From Bacteroidales bacterium (GTDB lineage Bacteria; Bacteroidota; Bacteroidia; Bacteroidales; CAIWKO01): a stretch of 64,000 nt of DNA. Where the stretch lies: positions 1 to 64,000 of the forward strand of contig DAOORA010000017.1 of assembly GCA_035389045.1 (NCBI GenBank), written 5' to 3'. The notes under the pieces were generated by a model, which did no database searches, was not told the DNA's origin, and saw only the letters and a list, made by a program, of their open reading frames with translations. This document shows, in pieces, positions 9,787 to 20,830 of this stretch. Within the stretch, counting starts at the first letter, position 1, and every line of letters starts with the position of its first letter. The translations under genes and the position numbers were made by a program.

Positions 9787-12700
9787 ATGGAAAAAAAATC
9801 AAAATTTATCACATGCGACGGTAATTATGCGGCGTCGTATATTGCTTACATGTTTACCGAAGTAGCGTGCATTTATCCCATTACGCCATCGTCGAACATG
9901 GCCGAAAACATCGATGAATTTGCGGCTGCAGGAAAGAAAAATATTTTCGGCGAAACCGTTACCGTTTCTGAGATGCAGTCCGAAGCCGGCGCTGCAGGTG
10001 CATTGCACGGCGCTCTTCAGGCCGGAGCTTTGGGCGCAACATACACAGCATCACAAGGGCTGCTGTTGATGATTCCGAATATGTATAAAATCGCCGGTGA
10101 ATTATTACCGGGCGTACTACATGTGTCGGCCCGCAGCCTTGCTGCTCAGGCATTATCAATTTTTGGCGATCACAGCGATGTGATGGCTACCCGCAACACC
10201 GGTTTTGCCATGTTGGCTACCGGAAGCGTACAGGAAATAATGGATATCGCCGGTGTTGCACATTTTGCAGCCCTGAAATCACGTGTTCCCTTCCTGCATT
10301 TCTTTGATGGGTTCCGTACGTCTCATGAGGTACAGAAAGTCGAAGCTCCTGCGATGGAAGACATGGAAAAACTCCTTGACAAACAGGCATTGAAAGAATT
10401 CCGCGAAAGATCACTCAATCCTGAACATCCTGTAACGCGTGGTACAGCCCAGAACCCGGATATTTATTTCCAGACACGTGAAGTCGCCAACAAATTTTAT
10501 GATGCCGTTCCCGATATCGTAGAACATTATATGCAGGAAATGCAGAAAATAACGGGCAGGGAGTATCATCCTTTTACTTATTATGGTGCCCCTGACGCAG
10601 AAAATATCATTGTTGCCATGGGTTCCATTACCGAAACAATAAAAGAAGTGATTGATTATCTGGTGGCTAAAGGAGAAAAAGTGGGACTTATTACAGTTCA
10701 TTTGTATCGTCCTTTTTCGGAAAAATATTTTTTGAATGTTTATCCGAAAACCGCTAAAAGAATCACCGTGCTCGACCGCACCAAAGAACCCGGCGCCAAC
10801 GGCGATCCTTTGTATCTTGATGTGCGCGACCTGTTCTATAACAAACCCGGCGCACCCATGATCGTTGGCGGACGCTACGGTTTAAGTTCCAAAGATACCA
10901 CCCCGGCTATGATGCTTTCGGTGTTCGATAACATGAAAATGAACGAACCCAAAAATCAGTTTACCGTAGGTATCGTTGATGATGTTACCTTTAAATCGCT
11001 GCCCTTACTACCCGAAATCAGTGTTGCCCCTAAAGGAACCTACGAAGCCAAATTTTATGGGCTGGGTTCCGACGGTACAGTGGGCGCCAACAAAAATTCG
11101 ATAAAAATTATCAGCGAAACCACAGATAAGTATTGCCAGGCCTATTTTGCCTACGACTCCAAAAAATCAGGCGGTATCACCGTATCCCACCTGCGTTTTG
11201 GCGACAAGGCCATCAGATCGCCATATCTTGTTAATACCCCCAACTTTGTTGCCTGCCATGTTCCGGCCTATCTCGAAAAATACGATATGCTCAAAGGGCT
11301 CAAAAACGGCGGAACCTTCCTGTTGAACAGCATTTGGGATGTTGAAGAAACCAAATCACACTTGCCGAACCATATCAAGAAATACCTGGCCGCCAACAAT
11401 ATTAGTTTCTATATCATTAACGCCACTAAAATCGCGGAAGAAATTGGACTGGGAACCAGGACCAACACCATTATGCAAACAGCTTTTTTCAAAGTGTCGG
11501 AAGTAATTCCTTTCGATCTGGCTGTTGCTCAGATGAAAAAAGCCATCGAAAAAACCTATGGCCGTAAAGGTGAAGATGTAGTAAAAATGAACATCGCCTC
11601 TATCGACGACGCCATCAAGGGAGTGATCGAAGTGCCGGTACCTTCCGAATGGAAAAACCTCGACCGTGATGTGGCCAAAGAAAACAATGATGTTCCTGAT
11701 TTCATTAAAAATGTCTTCAACCCCATCAATGCACAAAAAGGCGATGACCTCCCGGTGAGCGCTTTTCTGGGCAGGGAAGACGGAACCTTCCCTTCAGGCA
11801 CTACCCGTTACGAAAAAAGAGGTATTGCCGTAAACGTCCCCGAATGGATACCCGAAAACTGTATACAGTGTAACCAGTGTGCCTTTGTTTGTCCCCACGC
11901 AGCTATCCGTCCGTTCCTGCTCAACGATGAGGATGTGAAAAATGCTCCCGCAGGCACCAAAACATTGAAGGCTGCCGGAAAAGAATTAGAAGGCCTGCAT
12001 TTCCGTATTCAGGTCAGTGTGCTGGATTGTACCGGATGCGAAAACTGCGCCGATGTTTGTCCTGCCAAGACCAAAGCCCTCGTAATGAAACCACTGGGTA
12101 CCCAGGAAGCAGAAATCGACCGCTTCACCTATATGGATAGCAAAGTAGGCTACAAAACCTCCAGCGTTGATATTTTTAAGATATTTAAAAACAGTCAGTT
12201 TGCTCAGCCACTGTTTGAGTTTTCGGGCGCCTGCGCCGGTTGCGGAGAAACCCCCTACATTAAATTGATTACCCAACTTTTTGGCGAAAGAATGATTGTG
12301 GCCAATGCTACAGGATGTTCTTCCATCTATGGCGGATCGGCTCCTTCAACGCCTTATTCCATTGCAAAATCAGGTAAGGGTGTTGCCTGGGCCAACTCGC
12401 TGTTCGAAGATAATGCTGAATATGGCTATGGCATCGAAACCGGCGTCAGGAAAATGCGTCAGCGTATCGAAAGACTGATGAAAACCGGTATGGATTCCGA
12501 TCTGCCGGCTGATATAAAAGAAGCTTTCAAGGCATGGCTCGAAGGTATGAATAATGCTGAAGCCTCTAAAGCAGCTTCTGAAAAAGTGCTGGCATTACTT
12601 GAAAAGTCAGAACATCCGTTGGCTAAACAAATTCTTGATCTTAAAGATTACCTGGTGAAAAAATCGGTCTGGATTTTTGGCGGCGACGGATGGGCTTATG

Positions 12701-13323
12701 ATATCGGTTATGGCGGGCTCGACCATGTGCTTGCCTCCGGCAACGATGTCAATATGTTGGTTCTTGATACCGAAGTGTACTCCAATACTGGCGGACAGGC
12801 TTCCAAATCAACACCTATTGCTGCGGTGGCAAAATTTGCCGCTTCCGGAAAACGTATCCGCAAAAAAGACTTAGGCATGATGGCCATGTCTTATGGGTAT
12901 GTATATGTTGCACAGGTGGCTATCGGAGCAAGCTATGCACAGTATTTCAAAGCTATAAAAGAAGCCGAAGCGTACCCCGGACCCTCCTTGATCATTGCCT
13001 ATGCTCCCTGTATCAACCACGGGCTGCGCGCCGGAATGGGTAAATCACAGCAGGAAGCGGAACGCGCTGTGGAGGCCGGATACTGGCACCTGTACCGCTA
13101 TAACCCCCTGTTGGAAAACGAAGGCAAAAATCCCTTTACCCTCGACTCGAAAGAGCCTAAATGGGAAGAATTCCAGAACTTCCTCGCCGGAGAAGTCCGC
13201 TACACCTCATTGAAAAGCACCTTCCCCGAAGAAGCGGAAGCCTTGTTCAAAGCAGCTGAAGAAAATGCCAAATGGAGGTATAAGAGCTATGTGATGAAAG
13301 CTCAAATGAAATACGATAATTAG
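9787..13323 (+). CDS. nifJ: Pyruvate:ferredoxin (flavodoxin) oxidoreductase
   Basis: 'YPITPSS', 'GLGSDGTVGANKN', two CxxCxxCxxxCP ferredoxin motifs, 'GACAGCGE', TPP-binding 'GGDGWAYDIG'; 1178 aa. Confidence 0.98.
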   Translation: MEKKSKFITCDGNYAASYIAYMFTEVACIYPITPSSNMAENIDEFAAAGKKNIFGETVTVSEMQSEAGAAGALHGALQAGALGATYTASQGLLLMIPNMYKIAGELLPGVLHVSARSLAAQALSIFGDHSDVMATRNTGFAMLATGSVQEIMDIAGVAHFAALKSRVPFLHFFDGFRTSHEVQKVEAPAMEDMEKLLDKQALKEFRERSLNPEHPVTRGTAQNPDIYFQTREVANKFYDAVPDIVEHYMQEMQKITGREYHPFTYYGAPDAENIIVAMGSITETIKEVIDYLVAKGEKVGLITVHLYRPFSEKYFLNVYPKTAKRITVLDRTKEPGANGDPLYLDVRDLFYNKPGAPMIVGGRYGLSSKDTTPAMMLSVFDNMKMNEPKNQFTVGIVDDVTFKSLPLLPEISVAPKGTYEAKFYGLGSDGTVGANKNSIKIISETTDKYCQAYFAYDSKKSGGITVSHLRFGDKAIRSPYLVNTPNFVACHVPAYLEKYDMLKGLKNGGTFLLNSIWDVEETKSHLPNHIKKYLAANNISFYIINATKIAEEIGLGTRTNTIMQTAFFKVSEVIPFDLAVAQMKKAIEKTYGRKGEDVVKMNIASIDDAIKGVIEVPVPSEWKNLDRDVAKENNDVPDFIKNVFNPINAQKGDDLPVSAFLGREDGTFPSGTTRYEKRGIAVNVPEWIPENCIQCNQCAFVCPHAAIRPFLLNDEDVKNAPAGTKTLKAAGKELEGLHFRIQVSVLDCTGCENCADVCPAKTKALVMKPLGTQEAEIDRFTYMDSKVGYKTSSVDIFKIFKNSQFAQPLFEFSGACAGCGETPYIKLITQLFGERMIVANATGCSSIYGGSAPSTPYSIAKSGKGVAWANSLFEDNAEYGYGIETGVRKMRQRIERLMKTGMDSDLPADIKEAFKAWLEGMNNAEASKAASEKVLALLEKSEHPLAKQILDLKDYLVKKSVWIFGGDGWAYDIGYGGLDHVLASGNDVNMLVLDTEVYSNTGGQASKSTPIAAVAKFAASGKRIRKKDLGMMAMSYGYVYVAQVAIGASYAQYFKAIKEAEAYPGPSLIIAYAPCINHGLRAGMGKSQQEAERAVEAGYWHLYRYNPLLENEGKNPFTLDSKEPKWEEFQNFLAGEVRYTSLKSTFPEEAEALFKAAEENAKWRYKSYVMKAQMKYDN

Positions 13324-16258: not shown

Positions 16259-17038
16259 TTATTCTTCTCTCAGATCGTAATCCACATCGTCAAAATATAA
16301 TAACTCCGGGGATTTTTTTGCTTTTGCCGGAGTCATCAGATCCATTGGACGCAACATTCTTGTTTTAAATACCGGATCGGTAAAGATGCTGCTTCTGATC
16401 TTTTTCATTTTAAACAGGGGGGTAATTCCCTGTTCAGCAACTATTTTTGTGTACAGGTCTTTTGAAAAAGCACATTCAAGATTAAGACTGGCATCTGCAA
16501 TATCCAATTTTGCTGTCGAAATATCGGCTTTGGCTTTTAATTCAATTTTAGCATCCTGCGAACTTGAAATAATTATTGTCGCAGAGTCTGCTGTGACCAA
16601 TTCAGTAATTACAGCCCAGTCTTTATCCCATTCGCCCTGCTGGTAACGCTGGATTATTTCTTTTCCGAGCTTGATCTGGTCGCTGATGCAGGGGCTTAAA
16701 GTTCCGTTGGCTTTGAATAAAATGGCATTTTCCTGAGAAAAACTGATGGAAAATCCCGCATCCCCATTGGCAAGTACGCTTCCCAAAGCCGGTACCGTGC
16801 CGGCAATTTTTGTCATTACGGATACCTCGCCCTTTGTCATATGTTCCAGGTCGGTTTTTGTAGTATCTTCTTTGATCTGGAAAACGATGCCTTCATTTTT
16901 GAGATTCGAAATTTTAGTGAACTCGTTGTTTTTAAATAACCCGATATCTCCCAATTCTAAGGGAGTGCCCGGAAGCCATGTGGCAAAATAATCGAATTGT
17001 CTGTACAACTCGTTTGTGTACTTTTTTACTGTTTTCAT
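16259..17038 (-). CDS. Gasdermin-like pore-forming protein (putative bacterial gasdermin)
   Basis: 259 aa, no signal peptide. N-terminal 'WLPGTPLELGDIG' (P..GD motif), amphipathic beta-hairpin segments, 'WAVITELVTADSATIIISSSQDAKIELKAKA' resembling the gasdermin 'V(V/I)T' strand, and a short acidic/aromatic C-terminal tail. Recognition by eye only. Confidence 0.65.
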   Translation of the reverse strand: MKTVKKYTNELYRQFDYFATWLPGTPLELGDIGLFKNNEFTKISNLKNEGIVFQIKEDTTKTDLEHMTKGEVSVMTKIAGTVPALGSVLANGDAGFSISFSQENAILFKANGTLSPCISDQIKLGKEIIQRYQQGEWDKDWAVITELVTADSATIIISSSQDAKIELKAKADISTAKLDIADASLNLECAFSKDLYTKIVAEQGITPLFKMKKIRSSIFTDPVFKTRMLRPMDLMTPAKAKKSPELLYFDDVDYDLREE

Positions 17039-17179
17039 AATTAATTAAATTTAAATGTTTGTTAGTGTGTCTGTTATTTGTTGTTTTTGATTGTTATTTG
17101 TTCTGTGTCCTTGTTAATGGCTTATAGCTAATTTTTTTATTACTTTCATGATATAAATACGAATTTAAATCATCAGAAA

Positions 17180-18532
17180 TTATAATTTTTCAGCAACCCA
17201 GCAATGAACATTCGACTGAAACATCTTTTCCTGCGCAAAATTAGCGGCAATACAGCTTCCGCGGCAGTCGGCAAGCCAGTCGCAGCGCCGGCAGGGGCCA
17301 TCAATATCTTCCGTAACAAGGCTTCTGAAATAATTAAGTATACGAGATTCATACCAGATGTCCACAAAATTCTTTTCCATAACATTGAAGGTAGCTGCTC
17401 CTTCAAAAAAGTTACAGGGTAATACGTTACCTTGTGCTGTAATGGTGCAGTATGCTATTGCCCCGTCGCAGCCGATATGCTGGACCGAGGGATGCTGTTT
17501 CTGAGCTGCAGGGGGGCGGAGCGTACATTCAAATTCCATGGGTATCAGCTCCAGCCCGACTTCCTTTTTCAGCTTATAAAGAGTCTGTGTGAGTTTTCGC
17601 ATCCTTTGGGGTTTGATCTCGAGGTCGCGGAATTCAGATCCCCGGCCAAAGGTAACAAAGGGCATGATTCTGAATGAACTGACCCCCAGATTTTTAACAA
17701 ATTTGAAAAGATGGGGAATCTCATTAACATTAAGACGGGTCACCACGGCAGCCACCGAAACCCAGGCACCTTCGCGGATAAGATTTTTTATGCCCGAAAC
17801 GGTTTTATTCCACGATCCTTTTTTATTTCTGAATTTTTCATGCGTTTCAGGGTTTATGGCATCAAGACTGATCTGGGAGTACAGGCCAAGTCCTGCAATT
17901 TTTTTCGCCACTTCCCGTGTAATAAGAGTTGCGTTGGATGCCAGCTGAATGGAAAGCCCTTTTTTAACCGCATATGCTGCAATAGTAAAAAAATCAGGGC
18001 GTACCAGCGGCTCGCCTCCGCTCAGGATTAACTGTTGAACACCGAAACCTGCCATTTCATCAATGAGGCTCAGGCATTTTTTCAGTGGGAGTTGTTCTTT
18101 GCGGTCAGGCCCGGAATCAACCACGCAATGACGGCATTTAAGGTTGCAGCGGGAAGTGATATCCCACAGGACTGCTATGGGCGGAGGAGGCTGGTAATAC
18201 TGCATCCGCTTTTTGCGCCACCAGATGAAACCCTTTTTCGTCAGCTTGTCCATGAACAATTCTGTTTTCTGACGTGTTTCGGAATATGGCGTTTTAAAAG
18301 CCTTTGCTGTTTGAAGGACGATCTCGTAAAAAGTGTGATATCCGTCGCAAAGGTTTACGATCCAGCTTCCTGACTCATTCAGAAAAAGCTCCGTCCCGTT
18401 CACAGGGTGGCAGATCCTTCGGGATCCATCGCCGGTGATTCTGAAAGGGAAAAAAGGAACGCCGTCCGAAGGGTATACATCTCGTAATTTCTCTGATTTC
18501 TCAGAGAAGTTCTTCCCGCTGCACCTATCCAT
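17180..18532 (-). CDS. PqqD/RRE-fused radical SAM/SPASM peptide maturase
   Basis: N-terminal PqqD-like 'LNESGSWIVNLCDGYHTFYEI...FMDKLTKKGFI', 'CNLKCRHC' (CX3CX2C), 'SGGEPL', and SPASM 'CDG...GNVLPC...CRRCDWLADCRGSC...C'. Confidence 0.93.
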   Translation of the reverse strand: MDRCSGKNFSEKSEKLRDVYPSDGVPFFPFRITGDGSRRICHPVNGTELFLNESGSWIVNLCDGYHTFYEIVLQTAKAFKTPYSETRQKTELFMDKLTKKGFIWWRKKRMQYYQPPPPIAVLWDITSRCNLKCRHCVVDSGPDRKEQLPLKKCLSLIDEMAGFGVQQLILSGGEPLVRPDFFTIAAYAVKKGLSIQLASNATLITREVAKKIAGLGLYSQISLDAINPETHEKFRNKKGSWNKTVSGIKNLIREGAWVSVAAVVTRLNVNEIPHLFKFVKNLGVSSFRIMPFVTFGRGSEFRDLEIKPQRMRKLTQTLYKLKKEVGLELIPMEFECTLRPPAAQKQHPSVQHIGCDGAIAYCTITAQGNVLPCNFFEGAATFNVMEKNFVDIWYESRILNYFRSLVTEDIDGPCRRCDWLADCRGSCIAANFAQEKMFQSNVHCWVAEKL

Positions 18533-18561
18533 TATAAAAATAATAAATACTTGAAAAACAA

Positions 18562-20658
18562 TTATTTGTGCATAATTCTCTGAGCGCTGGCGTTGAGTTT
18601 TTTAAGTTCTGCTGCTGAAATTCCTGACACACGTGATAATTTAGCTGTTTTATTCGGCGTGCTGGTCGCCGAAATAAAATCAGCGACCGTTTTAATGTTC
18701 ATTCGGGTCAGTATTTCAATGTATTCTTTTTTGATGTGAGGAATTTTGTCCAGTACCAGAACAGGATTAGAAACGATGTCGGGATTAAACACGGGGTCTG
18801 GTCCGGGCAGGCAGTGCACTATGGGCGCCACCGAACATATTTTGGGCGCCGGAGGACAAATGTATGCGGGTGACGGCGGGCAGATGACCGTTGGAGCGGG
18901 AGGACACACCAGATGAGGAGCCAATGTGCATGCGACAGGCGCCACGGCGCAGATTACCGGTGAGGGCGGACATGCTGCCATAGGGCCTACCCAGCAGGTG
19001 ATGGGGCAGGTTACGGCCGATCCTATTCCTACGGAGGCGAAAGCATTTATGATACTGGCGCGCCATCTGTTATAATGCGATGTGCCAAGATAAAGATCTT
19101 CCAGCGAATCAAGCACAGCATCTTTCATATCGGCAAAGTCAGAGGTAGACGTCAGATAATTGGTGAGTGCATGATAATACAATTCTCCCAGGACATCACG
19201 GCCAAGGCCTTCACAGATAGTTATCCCCCTGTGTGACCCGCCGGTGGCGATCAGATAGGCCGCCTTATTCATAATGCCGCTGTTAATATGTACTCCGCCA
19301 TAATCATCTGTACCAGTGTACATATCATTCGTGTGGTCGGGCTGGTGTCCGTCGATAACACTACCAATGGGATCTGTAGTGTCGTATTGTCCTCCGTTGG
19401 TCGGATCCTGGAGGTTTCTGCTGGCAGGCGCGGTGGTTTTCAGCCAGTAATCTTCCCCTTGCAGCCAGTCTCCGTCGACTAAAGCGGCAAAAACATCAGA
19501 CATGGATTCATTGAGGGCTCCGGGCTGATTGGAATATACCAGGGCGGCAGTATGTTCTGTAACGGCATGGGTCCACTCGTGCGCAATAACATCAATGGCG
19601 CAATAGCTGTCCTTGTCAACCTTATCCCCGTCGCCTATCAGCACATAACTCCCGTTCCAGTAAGCATTATTGGTATTACTGCCATAATGGGCATAGATAT
19701 GCATCTCGGCGCCTGCATTGTCATAACTGTTACGGCCATGCTTGCTGAGATAATAATCAAACACCATCCGTGTATAGAAATGACAATCGACTTCTTCCCG
19801 CTGATCGGTGGCACTCCAGTTATTGTTGGCATCTTCAGAAATGGGTGAGGGCGGATAACCACTGTTGCAGTCATGGGTAACAATTTTTGTTGATGTCCCT
19901 GTGGCGCCGTCTTCAAGGGTATATATGCCTGAAGCATGGTTGTGCATGGTATTCAAAGGGCTGGATGTGCTGGTATGGGCCCCGGAATATTTTCCTGTCC
20001 CGCTGCCTAAGGCATTGGTATGCGCGTATACATTATTATACCTTACAATAAAGTTACCCGTCTGGCTGTCGATGAAATAACTCCATATTGACGGATAGGG
20101 ACTCCCGTCCAGCGCCTTGTCTTCACCTTCTGCAAAAACCTGCCATGCAAGATAGGGTTTGTTCTTCACGTCAATTATTACTTTGAGGACAGGTTCTCTT
20201 TTTAACCGGTCGGGTTTATTGTTCTTGTCGTGCTTTAAAACAATGGCCAGCGCCTGCCTTCCCTGAATCTTTGGTTTGTCCGGCACCACAATATTCGAAA
20301 AAAACCGGCCGGCTATACCCCGTATTTCATTCTGACGGTTGATGTGTACAACTAATTCATGCCCGAAAACAGGATAGTTTTTGAACATTTGCTGGTATTT
20401 GAAATGTCTGTTGCCCATCTTATCCTGCAGGGCATCAATAAGTTTTAATTCCTCAGCAGGAGATTTAAAACCATATAGATCTTTGATTTCCTTAAAGAAA
20501 TTCATTACAGCTAACCGGGGTTCAGCAGCCTCAGGTTTCGACAGCGCCCCCCTCATTCTTAAGGGAACTCCGGTTTTTTCATTCCAGATATATTCAAGAT
20601 TGGAATCAGCCTTTTTGAGATTTTTAAGAATCTTGTTTTGTTTTTCTGTGGGTTTCAT
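18562..20658 (-). CDS. Thermolysin-family (M4) metallopeptidase with FTP/PepSY propeptide, C-terminal Cys/Pro repeat and HhH(DUF4332)-like domain; no signal peptide
   Basis: 'NNAYWNG', 'DVIAHEWTHAVT' (HExxH), 'GALNESMSD', 'DYGGVHINSGIMNKAAYL'. Propeptide 'HFKYQQMFKNYPVFG'. N-terminus is hydrophilic ('MKPTEKQNKILKNLKKAD'). Confidence 0.93.
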   Translation of the reverse strand: MKPTEKQNKILKNLKKADSNLEYIWNEKTGVPLRMRGALSKPEAAEPRLAVMNFFKEIKDLYGFKSPAEELKLIDALQDKMGNRHFKYQQMFKNYPVFGHELVVHINRQNEIRGIAGRFFSNIVVPDKPKIQGRQALAIVLKHDKNNKPDRLKREPVLKVIIDVKNKPYLAWQVFAEGEDKALDGSPYPSIWSYFIDSQTGNFIVRYNNVYAHTNALGSGTGKYSGAHTSTSSPLNTMHNHASGIYTLEDGATGTSTKIVTHDCNSGYPPSPISEDANNNWSATDQREEVDCHFYTRMVFDYYLSKHGRNSYDNAGAEMHIYAHYGSNTNNAYWNGSYVLIGDGDKVDKDSYCAIDVIAHEWTHAVTEHTAALVYSNQPGALNESMSDVFAALVDGDWLQGEDYWLKTTAPASRNLQDPTNGGQYDTTDPIGSVIDGHQPDHTNDMYTGTDDYGGVHINSGIMNKAAYLIATGGSHRGITICEGLGRDVLGELYYHALTNYLTSTSDFADMKDAVLDSLEDLYLGTSHYNRWRASIINAFASVGIGSAVTCPITCWVGPMAACPPSPVICAVAPVACTLAPHLVCPPAPTVICPPSPAYICPPAPKICSVAPIVHCLPGPDPVFNPDIVSNPVLVLDKIPHIKKEYIEILTRMNIKTVADFISATSTPNKTAKLSRVSGISAAELKKLNASAQRIMHK
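18790..19010 (-). repeat. Coding tandem repeat of C-x-x-[G/S/A]-P (9 copies, period 7-8 aa)
   Basis: CWVGP, CPPSP, CAVAP, CTLAP, CPPAP, CPPSP, CPPAP, CSVAP, CLPGP, plus one preceding Cys (10 Cys in total). Confidence 0.95.
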
Positions 20659-20830
20659 AATTAATTGATTTTTAGGTTAATATTTATGCAGACATTTTTT
20701 GTTCAATTGGATTTTTACAAGGTCCCGGCTCACACTTATCAATCAACCTGATTTGTTCATTCGTTTAAAACTATCTGAAAAACAAATTTTCAAAAAAAAG
20801 GATGTTGTAAAAATATTTCAAAGAAACCAA

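Follow-up and report, generated by a model that had tools for sequence, protein, structure and literature searches.

The described systems that come closest to the one reported here are SPASM radical S-adenosylmethionine (rSAM) maturases that target sequence repeats, enzymes that carry their own core peptide (the borosins), and proteins cross-linked by an rSAM enzyme, as in the QhpC/QhpD pair. The ranthipeptide system PapA/PapB forms repeated Cys-X3-Asp thioethers, borosins bear the core peptide at the C-terminus of their own enzyme, where it is N-methylated, and the acceptors of the QhpC cross-links are Asp or Glu residues. Here, we analyzed a cassette of two genes in a 64,000-nucleotide stretch of DNA from a Bacteroidales bacterium (GenBank assembly GCA_035389045.1, contig DAOORA010000017.1, positions 1 to 64,000; hereafter the window). 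The first gene encodes an M4 zinc protease that bears nine regularly spaced Cys-Pro units behind its catalytic domain, and the second an rSAM enzyme with a PqqD-type recognition element for peptides that are synthesized on the ribosome and modified after translation (RiPPs), i.e., an RRE, and a SPASM domain. The comparative evidence argues, with a probability that we put at about 0.65, for an array that would be the in-cis substrate of the downstream enzyme within a mobile two-gene cassette, and in which each unit would undergo one event, at its invariant Cys. The features of the cassette are as follows (aa, amino acids; ORF, open reading frame).

18562..20658, minus strand: gene of the M4 (thermolysin-type) zinc protease, 698 aa (ORF and Pfam)
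20302..20454, minus strand: FTP propeptide motif, residues 69-119, within an N-terminal prodomain of about residues 1-210 (Pfam; AlphaFold2)
19024..19974, minus strand: M4 catalytic and alpha-helical domains, residues 229-545 (Pfam)
18982..19008, minus strand: lead-in C-P-x-x-C-W-x-x-P, residues 551-559, here C-P-I-T-C-W-V-G-P (alignments)
18799..18996, minus strand: nine C-x-x-[G/S/A]-P units, residues 555-620, the proposed modification sites (motif scan of the translation)
18793..18813, minus strand: cap C-L-P-G-P-D-P, residues 616-622, which includes the last unit (invariant in alignments A1 and A3)
18565..18759, minus strand: C-terminal four-helix tail of helix-hairpin-helix type, residues ~634-698 (AlphaFold2; HHH_5/DUF4332 in relatives)
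17180..18532, minus strand: PqqD(RRE)-radical SAM-SPASM gene, 450 aa, starting 29 nt after the protease stop (Pfam)
18224..18382, minus strand: PqqD domain or RRE, residues 51-103 (Pfam)
17279..17470, minus strand: SPASM auxiliary Fe-S cluster domain, residues 355-418 (Pfam and conserved Cys)

Taken singly, the parts are ordinary, namely an M4 protease and an RRE-rSAM-SPASM enzyme. Freyrasin (PapA/PapB), the CefB 'Cys-every-fifth' system and the CXXX-repeat target family likewise combine a SPASM rSAM enzyme with regularly spaced Cys repeats and one presumed modification per repeat. Unlike in PapA, however, the unit here is C-P-P-[S/A/G]-P without an acidic acceptor, and the substrate would be the tail of a 698-aa protease rather than a short leader-core peptide. 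Synthases of the CteB, SkfB and StsB family have the same PqqD/RRE, radical SAM core and SPASM layout as the rSAM enzyme of the window, but the latter scores only 145.5 bits with the StsB model (cut-off 625, residues 53-441) and the substrate architecture is different. In borosins of the OphMA type a core-like region also stands at the C-terminus of a full-size enzyme; the enzyme fused to the array of the window is a protease, however, and not the modifying enzyme, and the chemistry would be that of radical SAM rather than N-methylation. QhpC/QhpD resembles the cassette in combining a SPASM rSAM enzyme, Cys residues of a protein that stays functional and a protease nearby, whereas the cassette has no amine dehydrogenase context and its repeats are regular. 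Classical secreted M4 and M12A zymogens share the intact catalytic domains and zinc motifs, with an FTP propeptide in the M4 form, but here there is no signal peptide, and a C-terminal Cys-Pro array and an obligatory rSAM partner are added. A search of the full-text literature, with subscription journals and rSAM-atlas supplements outside its scope, found no published description of this architecture. In particular, we did not find described C-P-P-[S/A]-P as an rSAM-linked motif, its placement on two zinc protease families, or a two-gene cassette common to methanogens and anaerobic bacteria. Passages of a 2023 review of RiPP proteases name the metalloprotease families M1, M16, M50, M61, M79 and M103, and neither M4 nor M12 (PMC10885120), and the architecture is not described in passages of PMC7159879, PMC9062424 and PMC10885120.

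The units of the array start at residues 555, 563, 570, 577, 585, 593, 601, 608 and 616, that is, at spacings of 8, 7, 7, 8, 8, 8, 7 and 8 residues. The second Cys of the lead-in is the start of the first unit, and about 65 residues lie between the cap and the protease C-terminus. The original prediction, made from the sequence alone, had described nine C-x-x-[G/S/A]-P repeats with a Cys spacing of 7-8 right after the M4 catalytic domain, at 18790..19010. All of this stood: the Pfam domain ends at residue 545, the units begin at residue 555, and on the minus strand the array occupies nt 18799-18996, with the preceding Cys of the CPIT segment at 19006-19008. The plus-strand frame across 18790-19010 is full of stops, and the array peptide is read from the minus strand. 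Tandem Repeats Finder (minimum score 30) agreed with the divergence of the codons, detecting no DNA-level tandem repeat at 18700-19100; the periodicity is therefore kept at the protein level. Three or more consecutive units arose in 0 of 20000 residue shuffles of the protease. When the complete 4.46-Mb genome was scanned in all six frames, this locus was the only one with an array of this type.

Nine proteins, i.e., that of the window and eight homologues, share the architecture; they have 7-13 units each and agree in the invariant lead-in and cap. Residues C551, P552, C555, W556 and P559 of the lead-in are invariant in this nine-sequence alignment (A1) and in a ten-sequence alignment of the tails (A3). 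The family consensus of the unit is C-P-P-[S/A/G]-P followed by two to three mostly hydrophobic residues, the linkers between units being dominated by I, L, V and F. Among 27 array-bearing M4 proteins (7-13 units each), the spacing was 7 in 67 cases and 8 in 145. Position +4 is Pro in all units, positions +1 and +2 are mostly Pro (+2 in 199 of 251, with V or L in the window's own units), and position +3 is S in 108, A in 96 and G in 29 of the 251.

A scan of one genome per prokaryotic species for M4 relatives yielded 80 loci, of which 18 were close (48-60% identity). The array was present in 14 of these 18, and in every one of the 14 the gene directly downstream, on the same strand, encodes an rSAM ortholog (42-54% identity). 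Three complete close relatives lack the array, i.e., one from Calothrix with another C-terminal repeat (L012) and two from Mariniphaga that end right after the catalytic domain (L015 and L016), and no rSAM match was found in the 5.8-7 kb downstream of them; the 18th (L017) is cut by a contig end. Neither array nor rSAM gene was found at the 62 more distant M4 loci. Over all 160 fetched loci (L001-L160), a regular-expression scan for the array gave 15 array loci, all with a PqqD-rSAM-SPASM ortholog directly downstream, the window being the 16th. In nine loci of the Methanosarcinaceae type there is a 4-nt overlap between the protease stop and the longest rSAM ORF. We read the array as the probable substrate because the rSAM enzyme carries an RRE and because nothing in the protease other than the array and its flanks tracks the rSAM gene.

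Two of these loci have peculiarities of their own. In place of the array, the Calothrix protein (L012:6992-9277, plus strand) has about 4.5 tandem copies of a unit of about 53 residues, GTIGTKIATYKWTEGWTTANFYTIGAKTYIFLLKEEGTGADDKNVHIHEVNAN, which matches no Pfam family at E 0.01. In Halomicronema (L011:3908-4282) a run of masked N interrupts the array and leaves both the number of units (7) and the reading frame across it uncertain, and the C-L-P-G-P-D-P cap reappears in another frame.

The named hosts of the pair are Methanolobus, other Methanosarcinaceae, a 'Euryarchaeota archaeon', Anaerolineae, Turneriellaceae, Halomicronema and Bacteroidales, to which a database name adds Dehalococcoidales; the pair spans methanogenic archaea and four or five bacterial phyla. 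Public records name the proteins 'M4 family metallopeptidase' and either 'radical SAM protein' or 'PqqD family peptide modification chaperone'. The rSAM gene was found in none of 22 other genomes of the window's family (E up to 1e-60), several of which are incomplete. Given this absence from close kin and the high identity between archaeal and bacterial copies, the data point to lateral spread of the cassette. Pairwise distances of protease and rSAM enzyme were correlated (Mantel r 0.947, with none of 2000 permutations as high), a figure of the kind that kinship inflates; with seven lineage representatives r was 0.83. One could suppose that a lineage-specific M4 protease with a low-complexity tail merely happens to lie beside an unrelated rSAM gene, as the neighbourhood of the window beyond the two genes is not conserved in the other loci, where only protease and rSAM recur. 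This chance adjacency is very unlikely, and for practical purposes excluded, since the two genes have stayed together in archaea and several bacterial phyla, their divergence being correlated, and since the array recurs beside the same rSAM clade on an astacin scaffold, as described below.

No other candidate substrate emerged at the cassette. The absence of a separate short precursor gene, which the original prediction had noted, held in a wider search: ORFs of at least 20 aa in the flanking intergenic regions of the window's cassette contain no regular Cys motif, and 670 small ORFs of 15-90 aa, lying no more than 1.5 kb from the cassette at 14 loci, gave no match across lineages. A search for shorter homologues returned one truncated M4_C fragment and no stand-alone short array protein; likewise, phmmer matches below 300 aa look like fragments rather than stand-alone array peptides. 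The cassette therefore differs from sactipeptide and ranthipeptide systems, which have a short, separate leader-core precursor.

Arrays of this kind are also found on other scaffolds. A reciprocal metagenome scan with the rSAM alignment gave at least 80 loci; one of its two patterns is a motif generic to rSAM enzymes, and the scan is a poor guide to how frequently this rSAM clade occurs without an array. Among the matches listed, one (L081) is a close rSAM relative (38% identity over residues 25-448, PqqD included, with a PqqD match of 47.9 bits). Upstream of this rSAM gene (L081:1356-3158, plus strand) lies a gene for a 600-aa astacin (M12A, Pfam 4.5e-47) with about 25 C-[P/R]-P-A-P units. 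The other 79 rSAM loci among the matches listed are at most 36% identical, most being matched without the RRE part, and the regular-expression scan found no array in these more distant loci. Three further astacin proteins with arrays (P0015-P0017), all without signal peptides, were present in the protein collection. The array proteins of L081 and P0015-P0017 end in a Tyr/Gly-rich low-complexity tail of the D-P-Y-G-Y-G type, and not in the helix-hairpin-helix tail of the M4 type.

A phmmer search with the window's tail against 1.84 billion representatives gave seven matches at E up to 0.001. One of them, P0022, joins an rSAM domain directly to about 28 A-C-P-K-[A/G/S]-P-x-L units and occurs on four contigs. 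It has no N-terminal PqqD match, and an enzyme whose substrate is in cis would have no need of a recognition domain. Its rSAM domain belongs to a ranthipeptide-like clade (best TIGR04463, 122.7 bits against a cut-off of 525, then CefB and PapB) and is matched by the quino_hemo_SAM model at 77.5 bits. The layout of P0022 is exactly that of borosins, and the architecture of the window's protease, its array-bearing M4 relatives, L081 and P0022 would suit an enzyme-embedded core of borosin type, with the array as the putative core. In P0025 an array that ends in C-L-P-G-P-D-P follows an unrelated N-terminal domain of unknown function; the N-terminal 300 residues of P0025 matched only unnamed clusters in the ESM Atlas. 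As to the remaining candidates, P0023 and P0026 are apparent fragments of M4-array proteins, P0024 is an apparently unrelated HYR-repeat protein, and P0012 and P0018, returned by the array search from L081, are Pro-rich but have no regular Cys pattern and were set aside as false positives. P0011, P0013 and P0014 were not counted as members, their heptad being another one, C-P-x-x-x-T-x. They are long proteins with dozens of such heptads; P0011 has GEVED and DUF7901 domains, the same families (PF20009, PF25470) stand in a precomputed table for P0014, and the N-terminus of P0013 is signal-peptide-like.

Taken together, comparative genomics supports what the original prediction had proposed, i.e., that the array would be the substrate of the neighbouring rSAM enzyme and form a protein-embedded RiPP-like core: rSAM orthologs adjoin 15 of 15 fetched array loci, the two are absent together in three of three complete array-less orthologs, and the astacin and fusion proteins agree. 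Arrays lying mostly without rSAM neighbours, which that prediction had named as the observation that would speak against it, were thus not what the loci displayed, and the search for similar arrays beside rSAM genes that it had suggested found them on both M4 and astacin proteases. Its further proposals, namely cross-links from Cys to Pro or to Gly/Ser/Ala and release of the core by the fused peptidase, would be speculative.

In the rSAM enzyme, Pfam matches were Radical_SAM (1e-25), PqqD (2.4e-06; 28.2 bits, cut-off 23.4) and SPASM (3e-06; 27.9 bits against 21.5). The radical SAM motif CX3CX2C (C129-x3-C133-x2-C136) is invariant in 12 orthologs, as are the seven Cys of the SPASM domain (C355-x12-G368-x4-C373, C414-x2-C417-x5-C423-x3-C427 and C444). 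It is the single rSAM enzyme of this type in the 4.46-Mb genome. By profile, its best solved relatives are SPASM enzymes that form thioethers or modify peptides, namely SkfB (6efn; 1.5e-30), PqqE and CteB (5wgg), the last aligning over positions 33-424, RRE region included. Of the NCBIfam models, 84 matched and none reached its own cut-off; the best was NirJ2 (210.7 bits against 500), other scores being MftC 151.7, PqqE 105 and PapB 82.7 (against 340). Given that no curated family is reached and that heme-pathway enzymes give the best scores, the chemistry is not fixed by sequence. Our leading guess is a thioether that links the sulfur of Cys to a carbon in a nearby residue, as made by sactipeptide and ranthipeptide synthases, because each unit has an invariant Cys, because SkfB, PqqE and CteB are the best solved relatives and because PapB forms thioethers repeat by repeat. 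If the array is the substrate, we would give this, by analogy, a little less than an even chance.

The array could also be a substrate for some other chemistry, either conversion of Cys to formylglycine, as by anaerobic sulfatase-maturating enzymes (anSMEs), or excision of a Cys-Pro-derived small molecule, following the logic of pyrroloquinoline quinone (PQQ) and mycofactocin biosynthesis. An anSME is among the solved rSAM relatives (aligned positions 114-416), and anSMEs act on a C/S-x-P/A-x-R motif in the sulfatase, which the Pro at +2 in most units of the family recalls. An rSAM enzyme with an RRE and a peptidase is moreover the layout of the PQQ and mycofactocin pathways, and both MftC and PqqE are among the scoring models. 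Nonetheless, we hold these alternatives to be unlikely: the residue at +4 is Pro in all units and not Arg, V or L stands at +2 in the units of the window, the Pfam scan found no sulfatase domain, and no model reached its cut-off.

Several points weigh against a modified array. The support for it is genomic association throughout. The 14 loci of close M4 relatives include 10 from Methanosarcinaceae or Methanolobus, so that the independent lineages number about 6-7 and not 15. The rSAM domain of P0022 is of a different clade, which makes the fusion an analogy and not an orthology, and P0025 shows a protease to be a frequent but not an obligatory carrier of the array. None of the acceptors of known ranthipeptides (Asp, Glu, Thr or Asn) is present in the units. 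Metatranscriptome contigs matched parts of both genes at ≥99% in the runs X4 (5 contigs), X6 (4) and X9 (1), and at 95-99% in X8 (1), and one of them (18961-19111) covers the start of the array; as DNA carry-over is uncontrolled, these are not counted as expression, and nothing follows from the parts left uncovered. Finally, the best NCBIfam scores of the rSAM enzyme are to the heme-pathway enzymes NirJ2 and AhbD and not to peptide maturases, and AlphaFold2 modelled the array as disordered (pLDDT, predicted local distance difference test, ~29), as it would any Pro-rich linker, with residues 555-632 lacking secondary structure between two folded parts.

These last two points would equally suit an array that is a Pro/Cys-rich spacer or hinge, a segment that senses metal or redox state, or an inhibitor acting on the zinc site in the manner of a cysteine switch, with the rSAM enzyme acting elsewhere, i.e., on another part of the protease or on an unlinked peptide or cofactor. 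Both protease families that carry the array are zinc enzymes, and thiols bind zinc; the array of P0022 also matches Pfam Cornifin (2.9e-19), cornifins being proline-rich structural proteins. Yet a spacer leaves unexplained why the rSAM gene is present at all 15 array loci and missing from the three complete array-less orthologs, and it accounts neither for the conserved PqqD/RRE domain nor for the fusion of an rSAM domain to an array. A single active site, furthermore, would not need 7-25 repeats. We therefore regard this explanation as improbable.

If the array is indeed the substrate, the cassette could work as follows. Both proteins would stay in the cytoplasm, as expected from the lack of a signal peptide and from the known biology of rSAM enzymes. 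Docking of the PqqD/RRE domain would take place on a conserved segment at one end of the array (lead-in C-P-x-x-C-W-x-x-P or cap C-L-P-G-P-D-P), and the enzyme would then modify the invariant Cys of each 7-8-residue unit in turn. A predicted complex of the rSAM enzyme with the tail (alignments A2 and A3) scored 0.27 and 0.01, against a mark of 0.32, and speaks neither for nor against such docking. The modified array might stay on the protease as a cross-linked, protease-resistant stalk, an outcome that we consider possible but doubtful. Alternatively, the fused endopeptidase could cut at the hydrophobic linkers and release modified peptides of 7-8 residues. Thermolysin-type enzymes prefer I, L, V or F after the scissile bond. 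Such a multi-core precursor, to which we would give even odds, is favoured by the I/L/V/F linkers and by the occurrence of the array on two unrelated endopeptidase families and on an rSAM enzyme. In a bolder version, which we think unlikely, the protein would be a self-sacrificing factory: an undescribed radical reaction would take place at each Cys-Pro-Pro-[Ser/Ala]-Pro unit, and the protease would cut its own tail at the linkers into 7-13 copies (up to about 25 for the astacin proteins) of a small modified peptide or of a molecule derived from Cys-Pro. Such products would form a new class, akin to RiPPs or cofactors, which methanogenic archaea and anaerobic bacteria would have come to share by transfer of the genes.

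The association of array and rSAM gene points to what would be an undescribed kind of enzyme-embedded modified peptide. Genome mining for rSAM-modified peptides targets small precursor genes and therefore misses a substrate that is part of a 700-residue protease's tail. The cassette offers a compact test case of two genes with culturable hosts (Methanolobus species) and a SPASM enzyme tied to C-P-P-[S/A]-P. Were the Cys residues modified, radical SAM enzymology would gain a new substrate motif, perhaps along with a new cross-link, and full-size proteases of two unrelated zinc families could serve as precursor scaffolds. Release of the units by the protease would make this a self-processing multi-core precursor, and an array that stays attached a case of rSAM maturation of a protease. 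A smaller question is the intracellular role of a thermolysin-type enzyme without a signal peptide.

With regard to the remainder of the protease, Pfam matched FTP (1.6e-13), Peptidase_M4 (2.3e-31, residues 229-368) and Peptidase_M4_C (5.1e-37, residues 371-545), the M4 pair far above gathering scores. In an alignment of 23 relatives, residues H360-E361-W-T-H364 (HEWTH), E384 and H457 do not vary; by analogy with thermolysin, we take E384 to be the zinc ligand and H457 the catalytic His. The domains and the HExxH/Glu/His residues of M4 proteases are thus present, whereas the secretion signal, a typical but not a defining feature, is absent: the N-terminus, MKPTEKQNKILKNLKK, is hydrophilic, with no hydrophobic stretch and no signal peptide, and the relatives are alike. 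In the AlphaFold2 model, which was built on a 23-sequence alignment, the N-terminus forms a helix of a folded prodomain that is confidently modelled (pLDDT ~85-95 over residues 1-180), and the catalytic part is weakly modelled owing to the shallow alignment. The C-terminal tail (pLDDT ~93) has helices at 644-652, 658-664, 668-678 and 682-697, and the aligned tails of relatives match HHH_5 and DUF4332. As the helical tail is missing from L004, L018 and P0008, it is dispensable for the link between array and rSAM enzyme.

The following features lie around the cassette.

16259-17038, minus strand: ORF, 259 aa
21082-21552, minus strand: ORF, 156 aa
21594-22694, minus strand: ORF, 366 aa
22864-25815, minus strand: Peptidase_C10 protein, 983 aa, with Spi inhibitor prodomain, CARDB, CBM-like parts and Por_Secre_tail (type IX secretion sorting)
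9787-13323: pyruvate:ferredoxin oxidoreductase

The 259-, 156- and 366-aa neighbours had no Pfam match at E 0.01, the first had no tblastn match in L001-L160, and no cluster of flanking ORFs that contains the window's spans the loci. A promoter and terminator scan gave counts at shuffle expectation. The GC content of the cassette is 0.46-0.50, compared with 0.30-0.40 in some flanks; other native-looking genes are equally high, and the profile was not used as evidence of transfer. Near-identical DNA to positions 17100-20700 of the window was present in activated-sludge and anaerobic-digester metagenome runs, with shares of 0.06-0.31 in the DNA runs other than the possible source. The Peptidase_C10/Por_Secre_tail protein and the pyruvate:ferredoxin oxidoreductase suggest an anaerobic Bacteroidota host.

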